This document shows, in pieces, positions 24,771 through 41,269 of a DNA stretch of 64,000 nt. The stretch comes from Escherichia coli (GTDB lineage Bacteria; Pseudomonadota; Gammaproteobacteria; Enterobacterales; Enterobacteriaceae). A model generated the notes under the pieces. That model saw only the letters and a list, made by a program, of their open reading frames with translations, did no database searches and was not told where the DNA came from. Made by a program: the position numbers and the translations under genes. Where the stretch lies: the NCBI RefSeq assembly GCF_044324785.1, contig NZ_CP172127.1; one strand, written 5' to 3'. Within the stretch, counting starts at the first letter, position 1. Every line of letters starts with the position of its first letter.

Positions 24771-25321
24771 TTCGTTTGTTTAAAGAACCTGCTGGTCCTG
24801 CCATTAATATTACCTGCTGATTGCTTCACATCCGGATTCCTCGCACTGCGCGCGGGTTATTGTTTCGTTTTCGGCCACGGGGTCGCCAGGGCTCTGTTTG
24901 CAGGCCATGATGGCCTGACCTGTACTGTTTCTCAGGCACTGAGATGTCCGTTTACGCCATTTGTTCCCGGATATCCTTAACCTCTGACGTTTGTTCCCTG
25001 CCCCTCTGTCTGATAACGAATACGCTCACAACGCACAGTACTGAACAATACCGACAACAACATGTCTTACATGAAATTCGCTGTAACATCCACCGGAAAA
25101 CATTTTCAGATATCGGATGAGGTACTACTTCCATTGACAGCGCGAGGTAACAAAATTGATGGTAACTCTGACCATTAACCGTAAACCGCAGGGTATTTTC
25201 AGTAAATCACCGGCAACGCCGCTGCAGAATAAAACGGACACAGCATACAAAATGAAGGCCGGTGACCAGATACCACAGTTGAACGATAAACAGAAACCTG
25301 CTGATAAAACACCGTGGCGAC

Positions 25322-25667
25322 ATGACAAAACGCCAGAGCAAAAACCGTAAGCGCATTATTCGTCTTGTGGAACTCTGGCCTGAGTCATTCAACCGGGAAA
25401 AAAACAAAACCACTTAAAGTGGGGATACCTGACGACCTGATACAGGATATCGCCATCCGAGAACTGGCGTTTGGCGCTGGTACATTACATGCAGCAGTGG
25501 CGTCTTATGTGCAGTCTCCGCGCTATTACCGTGCGTTAATAGCAGGTGGCGCCCGTTACAACCTGAACGGTCAGCCGTGCGGGGAAGTGACACCACAGGA
25601 ACAGAAAGAGGCAGAGACCCGTTTAATGATGCTGAATGACCGACGAAAAGACAGAAAACCTCGTTGA
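25322..25667 (+). pseudogene. FinO/ProQ-family RNA-chaperone-like gene interrupted by a frameshift in an A7 tract
   Basis: Frame 1 MTKRQSKNRKRIIRLVELWPESFNREKNKTT* stops at 25415-25417; the +1 frame continues ...KPLKVGIPDDLIQDIAIRELAFGAGTLHAAVASYVQSPRYYRALIAGGARYNLNGQPCGEVTPQE (FinO-like); junction at GGGAAAAAAACAAAACC (25395-25411). Confidence 0.55.
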
Positions 25668-25684
25668 CTGCACAACAGCGCTGT

Positions 25685-26437
25685 TCACTGAGCTGTAATC
25701 AATGTACAGCGCTGTACCGGGCGATGGGTAATACCGGTCACAACCGGTAACCCCAGAGACAATGCAACTGTTTTTAACGCAATATACTGGCCGGATGTAT
25801 CACCCCGGGCAGCCTGAAAACACCTTTCCACCCGGCATTGTCCGTCAGCACTTATCACCCGCCATGTCTGTTGCAATAAATCCACCCGTTGCGAACATTC
25901 TTCATCAACCGTGGCACTGACCCGTGGATGGCAAATGCTCGTCTGGCTGAGCAGCAACAGGCATCGCATTGTTGCTCCTCCATGTTGTTCCCGCAACCAG
26001 CGTAATACCACCGGTGGTGCTGGACTGGCCGTGTGATTACGTTCAGTAATACGCTCGTGCACCTGTCGGTAAAAGGAAGTACAGAATGCATGAATCTGTT
26101 GTCCGTTGATGTTTCCTTCTGCCGAATGGAGTGTGAAGTGGACGGCCAGCAGACGCGGCCAGTGATCCACCGCCTGCTGAATAAAACGCCGGATTTCCAC
26201 CGGCTCTGAAAGTACGGTTTCGGTTATTTGCACGATTTGATCCCCTTGAATGTTGCTGAACCGGTGTCGGTACGCAGGAAAGCACGCCGAGACCGGTACG
26301 ATGCCTGTTACAGCGAAGAACGAGGAATGACAGACGGGGGCAGCAGGTCGCCAGCACCAGGGACAGGGCTGATTTCCACAATACCAACGCTGGTATTTTG
26401 CACATTGCCAGCGTACCGGCATTACAACACGTTTCAT
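25685..26437 (-). CDS. Hypothetical protein, start overlapping the alpA stop
   Basis: ORF with ATGA overlap to alpA; cysteine/tryptophan-rich N-terminus (MKRVVMPVRWQCAKYQRWYCGNQPCPWCW); no family recognised. Confidence 0.4.
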   Translation of the reverse strand: MKRVVMPVRWQCAKYQRWYCGNQPCPWCWRPAAPVCHSSFFAVTGIVPVSACFPAYRHRFSNIQGDQIVQITETVLSEPVEIRRFIQQAVDHWPRLLAVHFTLHSAEGNINGQQIHAFCTSFYRQVHERITERNHTASPAPPVVLRWLREQHGGATMRCLLLLSQTSICHPRVSATVDEECSQRVDLLQQTWRVISADGQCRVERCFQAARGDTSGQYIALKTVALSLGLPVVTGITHRPVQRCTLITAQ

Positions 26438-26670
26438 GCGGCGACTCCCCGTGATGCTTCGATGCGCTGCTGCATCCACTGCTCCACTTCGCTTCTGTAC
26501 CAGCGGCTGCTGCGGCCCAGTTTGATGGGTTTAGGGAAATGGCCTTCACTGATCAGCTTGTAAAACCATTTGTCGGTCATACCAGTGAAGCTGGTGATGT
26601 AGTTCATGTCGATCAGGGGATCGTCGGCACGCAGCAATACGCTGTCGTGACCTGTCATTGAGGTCAACAT
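26434..26670 (-). CDS. alpA: AlpA-family phage/island transcriptional regulator
   Basis: 78 aa; ...LIDMNYITSFTGMTDKWFYKLISEGHFPKPIKLGRSSRWYRSEVEQWM matches the AlpA HTH family. Confidence 0.8.
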   Translation of the reverse strand: MLTSMTGHDSVLLRADDPLIDMNYITSFTGMTDKWFYKLISEGHFPKPIKLGRSSRWYRSEVEQWMQQRIEASRGVAA

Positions 26671-26738
26671 GGTCAGAATGTCCTCTGTGAGATTTATGAA
26701 TGTTGGGCAAATGCGGGTGAATCTGCTGAGCTGAGCTT

Positions 26739-27311
26739 TCAGAGCTGGCCTGCTACGGGATACCAGGGATTACCGGCGAGGTAACGGGCTTCCGGATCGC
26801 GCACACCACGACGATCGCGGGCGAAATCACTGAACGCCCATATCAGCTCTTTGAGTCTCTCTTCGCAGTCCGGTGAACGGGGATCCAGCAGCACATCCCG
26901 GGTAATCTGCTTCTGGTACGGTGCCGCTTCACCCGGTGACGCGAAGCCCAGTACGTTGCTCCAGGCATCCAGAATCAGCCGATCCAGTTCAGGGCCGTCG
27001 AAATATTCCTCCCTGACGCACAGCACCACGTGGTATTCCGGTTTTTCAGGATGACGAGTCAGGAGCCAGCAGAGATCACGTCCGGGGGTTGCATTCATCA
27101 GCGCACTGACGGTTTCGATAAAGGCCATACCGAACCAGGTTTTTCTGTCGCTGAAGATGTTGCCATGTTCCCCCGGCAGACGAAGCAGGATCCGCCGTAT
27201 TCGGGAGCAGGGCTGCTCACGCAGCGCACGCTCAAGGACACCGATAACTTTGCTCTGATAAGATGGCCAGAAGGGCGCCATGCTATAGTCGAAATAAGGG
27301 ATAGCATTCAT
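26739..27311 (-). CDS. YagK/YfjJ-family protein (inovirus Gp2-type), apparently 5'-truncated relative to its paralogue
   Basis: Similar to the 27668..28399 paralogue (YHVVLCVREEYF vs YHVILLLNKDTW); the paralogue's conserved 5' leader motif lies about 160 bp upstream of this gene. Confidence 0.55.
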   Translation of the reverse strand: MNAIPYFDYSMAPFWPSYQSKVIGVLERALREQPCSRIRRILLRLPGEHGNIFSDRKTWFGMAFIETVSALMNATPGRDLCWLLTRHPEKPEYHVVLCVREEYFDGPELDRLILDAWSNVLGFASPGEAAPYQKQITRDVLLDPRSPDCEERLKELIWAFSDFARDRRGVRDPEARYLAGNPWYPVAGQL

Positions 27312-27667
27312 AAGATATGTTCCGTTATACGCAGCCCACAACGCGTCCTGCCCGTGGATGCGCTGACGTGTTATGGCTTGCGTATGGGGTTGATGGAATA
27401 AGTGAAAAACCGCGGCAGAACGGGAAGATCAGGTAACCGACAAGGGACAGAACACCGGATGCAGGTTCAGAATGAATGATCTCCGTTGACTTCGGTTCAC
27501 ATCATTAAGCAGGACAGTAAGGTTTTACCGACGGAGTGTTTCCAGGAGCGAAAGCAGAGAAAAATACCGTTGCATGACTTCAGGACGACTTTTTCAGAAA
27601 ACGAGCTAAGGGCGTCAGCCAACGTCCTGTAGCATAAGCTCAGGCACCGGATGTCGTTTTACAGGGC

Positions 27668-28399
27668 TCACCTGCCATCCAGTAGACGCCCCGGCCCACG
27701 ACTGCAACCATAATTACGTTGCCCGGAACCGTTATGCAACTTCGTTTCATATTTCACGAGATAACTGGCTCTGTTCCGGGCTTTCTGCATCGCTTCCACA
27801 TCACCACGCTTGACCCAGAGCACAGCGGATTCACCCGGCTTTTTGTCTGAAGCCTTCCTGGTATCAGAACATCCACCCGACAAAGGCGTATCATCGGAAG
27901 AAGGGCGAGCATCAGATGATGTCGGTTTACGGAAAGGCGTCCGCCTGGAAAAATGAACCAGTCCATTACCCTGCCAGGGCTCAAGATGCAGAGCACTACA
28001 CCATGCCAGCTTGATCAGTGTCGCCAGCGAAGAAGGAACGGTGAAATCCCCTGGCGAGCACCAGGTATCTTTGTTGAGCAGCAATATCACGTGATAATGT
28101 TTCCTGCCTTTTTCCTTGCCAAACTCCCGGCACCAGAAATAACGCAGAGTGGTTGCACGCACACGCTTGTTGGCACGTCGTTTTTTCCGCTGGTAAGCCT
28201 GAATTTTGGCTTTCAGGGATGCAAAAAAACGAGAAATCACCGCTGAATCCGGATCGGGATCCATGATGGTGACAGGCATATACTCAGGGAAACGTAAATC
28301 CACCCGGATTAACGAGACGGCACGGTGCTGCGCCAGGGCACTGTCGAGAAGGCTGTCAAAACGGGATAACCAGTAAGCATTATGTATTGGTTGATTCAT
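27668..28399 (-). CDS. YagK/YfjJ-family protein (inovirus Gp2-type)
   Basis: 243-aa ORF; RBS GGAG about 10 nt upstream of the ATG; family assignment from recalled CP4-type island proteins. Confidence 0.6.
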   Translation of the reverse strand: MNQPIHNAYWLSRFDSLLDSALAQHRAVSLIRVDLRFPEYMPVTIMDPDPDSAVISRFFASLKAKIQAYQRKKRRANKRVRATTLRYFWCREFGKEKGRKHYHVILLLNKDTWCSPGDFTVPSSLATLIKLAWCSALHLEPWQGNGLVHFSRRTPFRKPTSSDARPSSDDTPLSGGCSDTRKASDKKPGESAVLWVKRGDVEAMQKARNRASYLVKYETKLHNGSGQRNYGCSRGPGRLLDGR

Positions 28400-29319
28400 G
28401 ATGAGAGATCTCCGTTGATTTGGATTGACTTCACATCATTAATCACCGCAGTAAAACTTTACGGCGTCCTGTCATTAAGCAACACCAGTGGCTCCTGATT
28501 AGAACAGAATGAGTTTCCCACGAACAAAAAGACAAACCTACACGCAGGGTAAAAACACGCAACAACAGCATGAATGGATTTGAAAACAATATGGATGACG
28601 AAAAATGTCAAAAGTGAAACGGATCAACAGAACGTGCAAACAAAACGTCAGAAACGCAATCAGAGCACTTTCTGGCGCTGTGAATCAACAACAACACCAA
28701 AACCTACAGCTTAACCACATTACTCAATCACGAATGCGAATGACACGTTTAAAACCTGTTTACAGATAACGCCGTAACACGATCATCCCCATCACCATCA
28801 GAATCGATTTTCTCATCCCGAAAATGTTACGTTTCACTACGCACCATAAAAACGATTAACCATCGATAACGTAAATCTCATCTGAATCAAAAAACCAAAA
28901 CCAATCATCACACTTTCGCAATGCAAGAAGAAAAACCACATCATGACGAAAACAATGACCTTACATGAAAAAGCAAAACGTCAGGAATCGTTAATGCCTC
29001 AATCTGATTGTTATCAAAACATCCAGAAAGTCGTTTAACAGAATCGTCGTAAGCACATCGAAAAGAACGTCAGATCACCTCAGGAAAGTTCGGGTTGATT
29101 TAGCGTAAAGATACTTTTCTCAGCTTAACGTCGAAACACAAACCAAAAACCACAAACAACCAAAGCTCAGGAAAGGTTAAACGTCACATCAGTAAAATCG
29201 AATAGCAGATTGATTGCTTAAACAGAAAGGTTTTACAGCAGCTTTAAACTGATTTTAGCTAACGTAAAGATTTACTAAACTGGATGAGTTTCAGACAAAG
29301 CAATGTGTACAGCAATGCT

Positions 29320-29500
29320 TAATGAAAACACTTATAGGGCTGTTTATGAAAACACGTGTATGTCTGGTAAAACACTTAGTAGAAAATACGTGTATAACAC
29401 TTACTGAAATGCTTAGTAAAAATACTTAGTAAAATATGTGTAGAATTATCTATTTAAAAAGATATGTATATAACACTTAATAAAAACATGTGTATATAGT
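29320..29500 (+). repeat. Cluster of at least 7 degenerate 11-bp direct repeats (AAAA[CT]A[CT][GT]T[AG][TG]); iteron-like
   Basis: aaaacacttat, aaaacacgtgt, aaaacacttag, aaaatacgtgt, aaaatacttag, aaaatatgtgt, aaaacatgtgt within about 180 bp of an ORF-free AT-rich stretch. Confidence 0.6.
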
Positions 29501-39151: not shown

Positions 39152-39730
39152 CGTTTCAGGACGCCACAATTTAAGCGTTCTGCCTAAAAATCATTTCTAC
39201 CGAACTCAACCAGATTCTCCCCACATCACCAGCAATTTGCGGGCATATCCCAATTCGGGGAAATGTGTTCCTGAGCTATAGCACTGACTGACGTGAAATG
39301 TCGTGCGGCCCCGTGATGCTGTTGAACGTCAAATGACGTCATCAGGAGCGTAACGCATCCATAAAGCACAACATCGGGCAGAACGCCGACTGATAAGATT
39401 TTCTGAATGAGAACAAAGAGAAATGTATCAGTCCGCTTGCTCATGCAAAGACTAACAATCCATTAAAATAGTAAGCGCTCCGGGCAATTTTCCATGGATT
39501 ATTTTCTGAACATTTTTCTTTGGCAAAGATGATGAATTTTGATGGTAAGGAATATTACTTCTGGTTCTCAGTAAAATCCTTTCGTAATACTATGTGATCA
39601 AGAAGTTTATGGCTGGTAAAAATAACGTCTTGCATTCACCAATAATATGTAAATAAACCCATCTATAGATGGTAAAAATAGGTTGTGGCAATTATCATTG
39701 CATCATTCCCTTTTCGAATGAGTTTCTATT

Positions 39731-41269
39731 ATGCAACAACCTGTAGTTCGCGTTGGCGAATGGCTTGTTACTCCGTCCATAAACCAAATTAGCCGCAATG
39801 GGCGTCAACTTACCCTTGAGCCGAGATTAATCGATCTTCTGGTTTTCTTTGCTCAACACAGTGGCGAAGTACTTAGCAGGGATGAACTTATCGATAATGT
39901 CTGGAAGAGAAGTATTGTCACCAATCACGTTGTGACGCAGAGTATCTCAGAACTACGTAAGTCATTAAAAGATAATGATGAAGATAGTCCTGTCTATATC
40001 GCTACTGTACCAAAGCGCGGCTATAAATTAATGGTGCCGGTTATCTGGTACAGCGAAGAAGAGGGAGAGGAAATAATGCTATCTTCGCCTCCCCCTATAC
40101 CAGAGGCGGTTCCTGACACAGCTTCTCCCTCCCACAGTCTTAACATTCAAAACACCGCAACACCACCTGAACAATCCCCTGTTAAAAGCAAACGATTCAC
40201 TACCTTTTGGGTATGGTTTTTTTTCCTGTTGTCGTTAGGTATCTGTGTAGCACTGGTAGCGTTTTCAAGTCTTGATACACGTCTTCCTATGAGCAAATCG
40301 CGTATTTTGCTCAATCCACGCGATATTGACATTAATATGGTTAATAAGAGTTGTAACAGCTGGAGTTCTCCGTATCAGCTCTCTTACGCGATAGGCGTGG
40401 GTGATTTGGTGGCGACATCACTTAACACCTTCTCCACCTTTATGGTGCATGACAAAATCAACTACAACATTGATGAACCGAGCAGTTCCGGTAAAACATT
40501 ATCTATTGCGTTTGTTAATCAGCGCCAATACCGTGCTCAACAATGCTTTATGTCGGTAAAATTGGTAGACAATGCAGATGGTTCAACCATGCTGGATAAA
40601 CGTTATGTCATCACTAACGGTAATCAGCTGGCGATTCAAAATGATTTACTCCAGAGTTTATCAAAAGCGTTAAACCAACCATGGCCACAACGAATGCAGG
40701 AGATGCTCCAGCAAATTTTGCCGCATCGTGGTGCGTTATTAACTAATTTTTATCAGGCACATGATTATTTACTGCATGGTGATGATAAATCATTGGATCG
40801 TGCCAGTGAATTATTAGGTGAGATTGTTCAATCATCCCCAGAATTTACCTACGCGAGAGCAGAAAAAGCATTAGTTGATATCGTGCGCCATTCTCAACAT
40901 CCTTTAGCCGAAAAACAATTAGCAGCACTGAACACAGAAATAGATAACATTGTTACACTGCCGGAATTGAACAACCTGTCCATTATATATCAAATAAAAG
41001 CGGTCAGTGCCCTGGTAAAAGGTAAAACAGATGAGTCTTATCAGGCGATAAATACTGGCATTGATCTTGAAATGTCCTGGCTAAATTATGTGTTGCTTGG
41101 CAAGGTTTATGAAATGAAGGGGATGAACCGGGAAGCAGCTGATGCATATCTCACCGCCTTTAATTTACGCCCAGGGGCAAACACCCTTTACTGGATTGAA
41201 AATGGTATATTCCAGACTTCTGTTCCTTATGTTGTACCTTATCTCGACAAATTTCTCGCTTCAGAATAA
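39731..41269 (+). CDS. cadC: CadC, membrane-integrated ToxR-like activator of cadBA
   Basis: 512 aa, MQQPVVRVGEWLVTPSINQISRNGRQLTLEPRLIDLLVFF...; single TM segment (FTTFWVWFFFLLSLGICVALVAF); matches K-12 CadC. Confidence 0.95.
   Translation: MQQPVVRVGEWLVTPSINQISRNGRQLTLEPRLIDLLVFFAQHSGEVLSRDELIDNVWKRSIVTNHVVTQSISELRKSLKDNDEDSPVYIATVPKRGYKLMVPVIWYSEEEGEEIMLSSPPPIPEAVPDTASPSHSLNIQNTATPPEQSPVKSKRFTTFWVWFFFLLSLGICVALVAFSSLDTRLPMSKSRILLNPRDIDINMVNKSCNSWSSPYQLSYAIGVGDLVATSLNTFSTFMVHDKINYNIDEPSSSGKTLSIAFVNQRQYRAQQCFMSVKLVDNADGSTMLDKRYVITNGNQLAIQNDLLQSLSKALNQPWPQRMQEMLQQILPHRGALLTNFYQAHDYLLHGDDKSLDRASELLGEIVQSSPEFTYARAEKALVDIVRHSQHPLAEKQLAALNTEIDNIVTLPELNNLSIIYQIKAVSALVKGKTDESYQAINTGIDLEMSWLNYVLLGKVYEMKGMNREAADAYLTAFNLRPGANTLYWIENGIFQTSVPYVVPYLDKFLASE

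Follow-up and report, generated by a model that had tools for sequence, protein, structure and literature searches.

A conserved leader element ahead of two YagK/YfjJ-type gene units in an Escherichia coli genomic island, apparently a duplicated regulatory site

Introduction

Repeated operators are a familiar feature of the control regions of phages and their satellites, the Cox boxes of P2 and the sites of P4 Vis/AlpA-type excisionase-regulators being examples, and the origins of rolling-circle replication usually adjoin the rep gene, as in the Ff phages and the pC194-type plasmids. Integrative islands, those of Pseudomonas among them, have been noted to include alpA and Gp2-like genes in their core (bioRxiv 10.1101/2024.08.29.610337), and the AlpA antiterminator of P. 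aeruginosa binds a GGGACG element (PMC9371919). Here we describe a leader element of about 75 nucleotides (nt) that is present twice, as copies A and B, in a stretch of 64,000 nt from Escherichia coli (RefSeq assembly GCF_044324785.1, contig NZ_CP172127.1), referred to below, at its full length, as the window. Copy A precedes a gene of the YagK/YfjJ family that encodes 243 amino acids (aa), and copy B precedes a gene of 190 aa (the short gene), which is followed by alpA and by a gene with a UCP030791 domain. Regulatory sites duplicated before paralogous units are familiar, and the element is apparently an undescribed case of one; neither the motif sequence nor a characterisation of YagK/YfjJ was found in the literature searched.

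The nearest comparison is offered by the cryptic prophages CP4-6 and CP4-57 and their YagK/YfjJ family, of which the 243-aa gene is a clear member and the short and UCP030791 genes are remote homologues with the same fold; as in CP4-57, the genes adjoin alpA and DUF3987/YfjI genes in integrative islands. In K-12, however, yfjJ and yagK are single genes with unrelated leaders of their own and no copy of the motif, whereas the module described here has up to three paralogues, two of them without catalytic residues. With the operators of phages and satellites the element shares short phased direct repeats before replication or excision genes, an AlpA-family winged helix-turn-helix (wHTH) gene in the same module, duplication before two units and conservation as sequence rather than as RNA structure, but it has no recognisable promoter hexamers and does not resemble the published Cox-box sequences. 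The AlpA of P. aeruginosa is a different and larger protein, and its GGGACG element is without a match in the leader element (PMC9371919). The plus-strand origins of Ff phages and the double-strand origins of rolling-circle plasmids are alike in lying directly upstream of a Gp2-like rep gene and in placing an inverted repeat by an AT-rich box and repeats; they differ in that the present element tracks an inactive paralogue too and that two Rep subfamilies are found with the same copy B. Finally, the cis-regulatory leaders and island small RNAs of Rfam share the position in a 5' leader, Shine-Dalgarno sequence included, but the element has no Rfam match and shows no covariation.

Two copies of one element

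The element is captured by a composite pattern, TTAATGATGTGAA-N(3-12)-TCAACGGAGATC, which has exactly two matches in the 64 kb of the window (28442-28407 and 27508-27478, both on the minus strand) and occurs in 0/100 dinucleotide-preserving shuffles; no second exact copy of the TTAATGATGTGAA or the TCAACGGAGATC box alone is present elsewhere in the 64 kb. In pairwise alignment the two copies agree in 73% of the columns, with one 5-nt insertion or deletion (indel), and an unguided repeat search recovered both halves as repeat families, D1 and D2, with spacings of 929 and 934 nt. An earlier note on this DNA had placed the motif at 28400-28475 and 27471-27537, and these positions hold.

Copy A (28400..28475, minus strand; alignment, pattern search, profile search and repeat search) abuts the ATG of the 243-aa gene at 28399. 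An imperfect palindrome (GTAAAG/TTTTAC) is found in it together with the invariant box TGnTTAATGATGTGAA, with ARRTCW repeats in phase and with TCAACGGAGATC; this last part here holds the Shine-Dalgarno sequence of the 243-aa gene. Copy B (about 27471..27545, minus strand; alignment, pattern search and nhmmer profile) carries the hairpin CGGTAA-AACC-TTACTG, a variable linker of 5 nt and the core TTAATGATGTGAACCGAAGTCAACGGAG, in which a single position varies across the island variants. No start codon follows copy B, whose end lies 160 nt before the first Met of the short gene (27311), confirming the distance of about 160 bp given in the earlier note. The boxes TTAATGATGTG and TCAACGGAG are stretches of the element (A/B), and a linker whose length is fixed and whose sequence is free separates the conserved blocks TGnTTAATGATGTGAA and AAnTCAACGGAGnTC from the imperfect palindrome. 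Read by eye from the alignments, ARRTCW units recur in the element every 10-11 nt. The copies also have private differences (GAAGTCAATCCAAATCAA in A against GAAC[CT]GAAGTCAA in B) and form distinct lineages, set off by the 5-nt indel and by private substitutions, that nevertheless keep the same invariant boxes; this indicates that they are not being homogenised and that the parts they have in common are the selected ones.

The loci compared comprise 80 metagenome contigs and 28 further loci taken from assemblies and complete genomes; the metagenome scan returned close relatives only (89-97% identity), which are useful for a census and not for deep phylogenetic footprinting. Across 11 distinct island variants, the short gene is identical at 0.92, 0.95 and 0.82 of sites in codon positions 1, 2 and 3, and the 63-nt motif of copy B at 0.91, compared with 0.725 for the spacer that separates them and 0.70 for the 60 nt upstream. 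Within the motif, 27 of the 28 columns of the core TTAATGATGTGAAC[CT]GAAGTCAACGGAG are invariant, and in this core comparison copy B is conserved above the second codon positions of the adjacent gene. The core of copy A is likewise near-invariant, in 24 sequence variants from the 80 metagenome contigs. Judged by this conservation, the shared motif is a selected cis element, and the suggestion of a shared cis element in the earlier note gains support from it.

In another E. coli lineage, in Brenneria, in Providencia and in a metagenomic lineage (loci L032, 216-265; L036, L042, L043, 2450-2501), orthologues that are 34-42% identical have a related pattern, TTT(T/A)AC-N15-TATGNNC, in their leaders, placed at -49 to -56 from the ATG. 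In those islands alpA comes right after the Gp2 gene, without an intervening short paralogue, and the alpA leader again has TTTTAC; in Providencia it also has GTAAAGTTTTACC, as copy A does.

Among 5,426 complete E. coli genomes, copy A is present in 1,872 and the region of copy B in 1,910, about a third in each case, and an exact scan for the motif in 100,044 species genomes returned one metagenome-assembled genome of the Enterobacteriaceae only; on these scans the element is confined to Escherichia. An origin of the element in a phage or plasmid was rejected, given that phage records held no match and few plasmid records did (20 records, most of them matching in flanking sequence only). The sole record labelled as phage that holds a homologous protein, OR844780.1 (L032; 4.5 kb, 'UNVERIFIED_ORG Escherichia phage'), contains a Gp2-like gene and an ORF (open reading frame) of 537 aa, and looks like island DNA rather than a phage genome.

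The genes behind the two copies

The 243-aa gene (27668..28399, minus strand; 'inovirus Gp2 family' in RefSeq) is identified by alignments and by two Pfam families, PF11726 YagK_YfjJ_C (123.7 bits against a gathering cutoff of 25.8, E 9.8e-36) and PF23343 REP_ORF2-G2P (39.9 bits, E 5e-10). Its HUH motif (HYH, in KHYHVILLL) and its YxxK motif (YLVK, in SYLVKYETK) are intact and fall on columns conserved in the family. The protein has a low-complexity insert of ~40 aa, at about residues 153-195, that is missing from the other family members of 189-208 aa. This insert is rich in Ser, Pro and Asp and specific to the E. coli 243-aa lineage (window 27820-27950, minus strand); many database variants (about 214 aa, e.g., P0105 and P0120) are frameshifted inside it, which suggests a mutational hot spot or a dispensable region.

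The short gene (26739..27311, minus strand; 'hypothetical protein' in RefSeq) was assigned from its orthologues and by profile comparison. Its protein has no match in Pfam, NCBIfam or PHROG, and its BLASTP match to the 243-aa protein is marginal (E 0.026). The profile of its orthologues, however, matches the Gp2 family profile with an hhalign probability of 84% (E 7e-6, 145 columns), and of the two distant full-length relatives that an exhaustive HMMER search returned, one, P0197 (36% identity to the 190-aa protein, E 2e-17), itself passes Pfam YagK_YfjJ_C with 41.8 bits (E 1.4e-10). By the profile match and the intermediate P0197, the 190-aa and 243-aa genes are paralogues, and old ones, at ~19% identity. 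In the short lineage the first histidine of HUH is lost (EYH, CYH or FYH for HYH) and the Tyr of YxxK is replaced by Asp (SDFAR for SYLxK), losses that are found in P0197 and P0201 as well; because of them, the short protein is probably a catalytically inactive, divergent YagK/YfjJ paralogue.

The earlier note had proposed that the short gene lost its start or was truncated at its N-terminus after duplication, and had named two full-length genes as the finding that would speak against this. The orthologues are all 186-191 aa long and have a common start, MNAIPYFDYS or (GTG)NTFSYFDDS, with ATG, or GTG at the same position, and GGAG 8 nt upstream; none has an N-terminal extension. The short lineage aligns with K-12 YfjJ and YagK from residue 1, and since its residue 14 pairs with residue 6 of the 243-aa protein, it has 8 residues more than that protein before the first homologous column. 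In this comparison the short gene is complete and full length, contrary to the proposal, and the size gap corresponds to the ~40-aa internal insert of the 243-aa protein. As to the start site itself, copy B does lack an ATG, as had been stated, but the ATG of A (28399-28397) stands opposite CTG (27470-27468) and not opposite TGA; a TGA does occur at 27469-27467, offset by one base from the aligned ATG position and out of the frame of the short gene.

These results also bear on the idea that copy B is a relic, a non-functional remnant of a duplicated gene start with a mutated ATG, the downstream gene having been truncated or re-started. Similarity between the copies does extend past the start position (CATCATGAAT in A, CATTCTGAAC in B), and the ribosome-binding site (RBS) of the short gene, AACGGA(G/A)C-N7-ATGAAT, resembles the 3' end of copy A, AACGGAG-N10-ATGAAT, a resemblance that makes an ancient rearrangement of the leader-start junction conceivable. 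But the short protein is full length and aligns with its family from residue 1, an orthologue with an N-terminal extension is lacking, the spacer is not a conserved reading frame (its indels shift the frame), and copy B is, unlike a relic, more conserved than second codon positions. We consider a relic very improbable, and the data assembled here already contradict it.

The spacer that separates copy B from the short gene (27312..27470, minus strand; variant comparison) is non-coding and C-rich, with a C/G ratio of 1.5-1.7; it evolves fast (mean pairwise identity as given above) and ends in the RBS AACGGAAC-N7-ATG. It exists in two diverged length types, of about 130-150 and about 165-180 nt. 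Antisense to the longer one (type II), RefSeq annotates a 49-aa 'hypothetical protein' (L004 4101-4250, L016 322-471, L027 3732-3881), which is probably spurious; the type I spacer of the window lacks an equivalent.

Two juxtaposed units

With the nhmmer motif profile, copy B was found ahead of each short gene whose upstream DNA was available (20 loci and the window), and copy A precedes every 243-aa gene examined (80/80 metagenome loci, together with L006, L018, L026 and L027). The copies always have one orientation, there are no hybrids or additional copies among the loci examined, and the profile detected no weaker copies before the 188-aa Gp2 genes, before K-12 yfjJ and yagK, or in the distant islands L021 and L023. 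Neither copy, moreover, depends on the presence of the other: many islands have, upstream of B, a gene of a different Gp2 subfamily, of 188 aa, with an unrelated leader, and 57 of the 75 informative 243-aa metagenomic loci have neither B nor a short gene nor alpA within 1.5 kb downstream. BLAST homology breaks at both edges of copy B, and past the stop of the 243-aa gene conservation continues for about 100 nt, through a GC hairpin, before homology ends just 5' of copy B. Independent occurrence and breakpoints together argue that in the tandem arrangement two self-contained units, [A + 243-aa gene] and [B + short gene-alpA-UCP030791], stand side by side, and that it is not the product of a local duplication. 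The tandem duplication proposed in the earlier note holds in so far as the genes are homologous, but their divergence is ancient rather than a recent local event. A tandem pair of a YagK-type and a short-type gene, then a UCP030791 gene, is also present in the distant island L023.

The conserved 3' tail of the first unit (27600..27667, minus strand; variant comparison) contains the GC-rich hairpin, AGGGCGT-loop-ACGCCCT (27600-27640, minus strand; L018 2655-2685), whose stem is partly degraded in the window. Its loop is inverted between variants (CAGCCA, TGGCTG or GGTTG), a pattern expected from template switching within a hairpin. An intrinsic terminator between the 243-aa gene and copy B was considered and rejected, as the hairpin has no proper U-tract and none was called by the scan.

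This linkage is of direct relevance to a further explanation, namely that the element is a rolling-circle origin or nick site, its nick site and binding repeats being recognised by a HUH Rep-like protein; the two direct copies would then flank the rep-like gene as initiation and termination sites, and the inactive paralogues would act as regulators that bind the site. Such a role would agree with the 243-aa protein, which has HUH and YxxK and matches replication-initiator families, with the position of the element next to the rep-like gene, where such origins usually lie, and with its architecture, an inverted repeat followed within a few bases by the AT-rich invariant box and the phased repeats; an intact HUH gene, of the 243-aa or the 188-aa type, is always found directly upstream of B. 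However, the same copy B stands behind the 243-aa and 188-aa Rep subfamilies, which are ~25% identical, and tracks the short gene and not the Rep, while the islands of the 188-aa type are without copy A. Most 243-aa genes have A alone, without B, and a two-site unit is therefore not the rule. The element is, in addition, absent from phage records and rare in plasmid records, and no demonstration of DNA nicking by the YagK/YfjJ family was found in the literature searched. We consider this explanation unlikely, and more doubtful still its variant of a domesticated HUH system, in which the intact YagK/YfjJ protein would nick the element, the two copies would delimit a unit able to replicate or be excised as a circle, and the dead paralogues and AlpA would license or repress the process.

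How the element may act

Our tentative reading, to which we give a probability of about 0.45, is that the element is a DNA-level operator, set in a weak or factor-dependent promoter or leader, that would be bound by a module-encoded protein and co-regulate both units. It is favoured by the placement of a two-copy element before a Rep-like gene and before an alpA operon, apparently a conserved feature of the module. The element would be read by its sequence and would head two units of an island module of the CP4-57/P4-like kind, copy A the intact HUH Rep-like 243-aa gene and copy B a putative operon of the short gene, alpA and the Zn-ribbon/UCP030791 frame. A protein of the module itself would bind, with AlpA, an excisionase-type wHTH protein, as the first candidate and the inactive Rep-like paralogues as the next. 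The outcome would be common control of both units: through B the putative operon would regulate itself, and through A the Rep-like gene would be governed. In copy A the 3' end of the element doubles as RBS. What the data show is the repeat, its selection, its strict linkage to each gene and that both genes are intact; that the element is recognised as DNA, which protein binds it and what this does to expression is our inference.

Several observations weigh against an operator of this kind. No sigma-70 promoter (-35/-10 with a spacer of 16-18 nt) was called in either copy, and among the orthologous leaders one was called in L036 only; TGTGAA, the E. coli form of the candidate second element, is without the critical -11 A. 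In islands of the 188-aa type, B starts 12-15 nt past the upstream stop, possibly just within a polycistronic mRNA. The variation among copies is so small that a role at the RNA level is still conceivable, and both the ARRTCW phasing and the cross-genus leader pattern were picked out after the fact from few sequences. Alternative promoters fared no better: hand-fitted -35/-10 pairs have spacers of just 14-15 nt or a -10 without the -11 A, a sigma-28 look-alike, TAAAGTTT, lacks a matching -10, and neither sigma-54 nor sigma-E fits.

An action in the transcript is the other possibility that the position of the element brings up. The leader would then be a site for an RNA-binding protein or a small RNA, or a determinant of processing or stability; copy A would control ribosome access, since the Shine-Dalgarno sequence and the AUG lie inside the element, and copy B would control stability, Rho-dependent readthrough or processing of the long C-rich 5' untranslated region of the short gene-alpA operon. 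The coding strand carries both copies, equally oriented and each with GGAG, and A runs into the AUG, where a predicted hairpin pairs AUGAUG with CAUCAU (z -1.98). In hairpin 1 of copy B the changes in the stem are mostly wobble-compatible and the loop is variable, B lies in the 188-aa-type islands too near the upstream stop for an obvious promoter of its own, the spacer resembles a Rho utilisation region in being rich in C and poor in G, and a ProQ/FinO-family gene, though usually frameshifted, adjoins the module. A conserved RNA structure, however, gains no support. RNAalifold on 16 unique copies, among which there is little variation, gave 8 pairs, 0 of them compensatory, at -1.04 kcal/mol, that is, no covariation and essentially no consensus fold, and copy B, with z-scores of about 0, folds no better than shuffles. 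Hairpin 2 is lost in the deletion variant L016, and hairpin 1 is not kept in the orthologous leaders of other genera. With the gathering score as cutoff, Rfam 15 had 0 matches anywhere in the window, and a search of 25500-29500 with E up to 10 brought up only chance-level matches outside the element; furthermore, the GGAG of copy B is followed by neither a start codon nor a conserved leader peptide. On balance we find a leader acting as mRNA rather doubtful, and prefer the DNA-level operator.

Searches for other signals gave negative results. No intrinsic terminator was called inside the motif, and no complement of either box, as a sign of antisense or target pairing, was present near the module. 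A leader peptide starting from the CTG, ATT or ATC after the GGAG of copy B was rejected, the frame not being conserved and type II spacers being without the codon; the overlapping ORFs 27486..27632 (plus strand) and 27497..27622 (minus strand) were likewise rejected, as they run into DNA that is replaced in the 188-aa-type islands and the variation shows no 3-nt periodicity.

Other module genes and the island setting

On the minus strand the order is copy A, 243-aa gene, copy B, spacer, 190-aa gene, alpA and the UCP030791-type ORF. The third gene of the module encodes an AlpA-family helix-turn-helix protein of 78 aa (26434..26670, minus strand; Pfam PF05930, E 3e-10, annotation and gene order), and its position is conserved in the gene order of the islands compared. 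The ORF that ends in the UCP030791 domain (25685..26437, minus strand) was delimited by an ATG overlapping the alpA stop, by PF27752 and by hhalign. Its domain part is the UCP030791 gene (182 aa, PF27752, 26233..25685; 'hypothetical' in RefSeq), which matches the Gp2 family profile (hhalign 96.6%, E 5e-10) and has MRC in place of the HUH motif. By this profile match the UCP030791 protein is a third, remote YagK/YfjJ homologue, and the module comprises three paralogues of one fold, of which one is catalytically intact. The counterpart of the gene in L027 is already labelled 'YagK/YfjJ domain-containing' in RefSeq.

The upstream part, an unannotated ORF (26437-26234, minus strand) whose ATG overlaps the alpA stop as ATGA at 26437-26434, encodes a Cys-rich, Zn-ribbon-like peptide (MKRVVMPVRWQCAKYQRWYCGNQPCPWCW...). 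It is in frame with the UCP030791 ORF in the window, giving 250 aa, and a separate ORF of 42-76 aa in L012 and L018; in the distant island L021 a similar CxxC...CxxC ORF lies ahead of a short-type gene. Converging on the module is the ProQ/FinO-family gene (25159-25667, plus strand), frameshifted in the window and in most islands examined and intact in some (L018, L026).

The region is a genomic island of the CP4-57/P4-like kind, riddled with insertion sequences (IS) and adjoining glnPQ; the window contains no tRNA gene, and no integrase is among its annotated features. The chromosome of E. coli strain GF60 (NZ_CP172185.1) matches the window at 100% identity. The island meets glnP right after two fragments of DUF4942 genes (window ~39650-39800 and flanks; L001 33100-33404), and no glnH is annotated between these fragments and glnP; glnH may have been removed or displaced by the island or by an IS-mediated rearrangement. 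The island's gene for the CbtA toxin carries a frameshift, and PADLOC returned no meaningful match to a defence system.

Significance

A very common class of integrative islands, found in Enterobacteria and Pseudomonas, has YagK/YfjJ genes and alpA in its core, and the role and control of these genes are uncharacterised in the literature searched. A strongly selected island cis element offers an experimental handle on them, as a probe for the regulator and as a substrate for binding or nicking by the Rep-like protein. The comparisons also call for a correction of annotation, in that the 190-aa 'hypothetical' protein and the UCP030791 protein are degenerate members of one fold. In practical terms the results are of modest weight unless the rolling-circle explanation is true, in which case it would provide a first biochemical function for the widespread YagK/YfjJ family and its 'hypothetical' partners.

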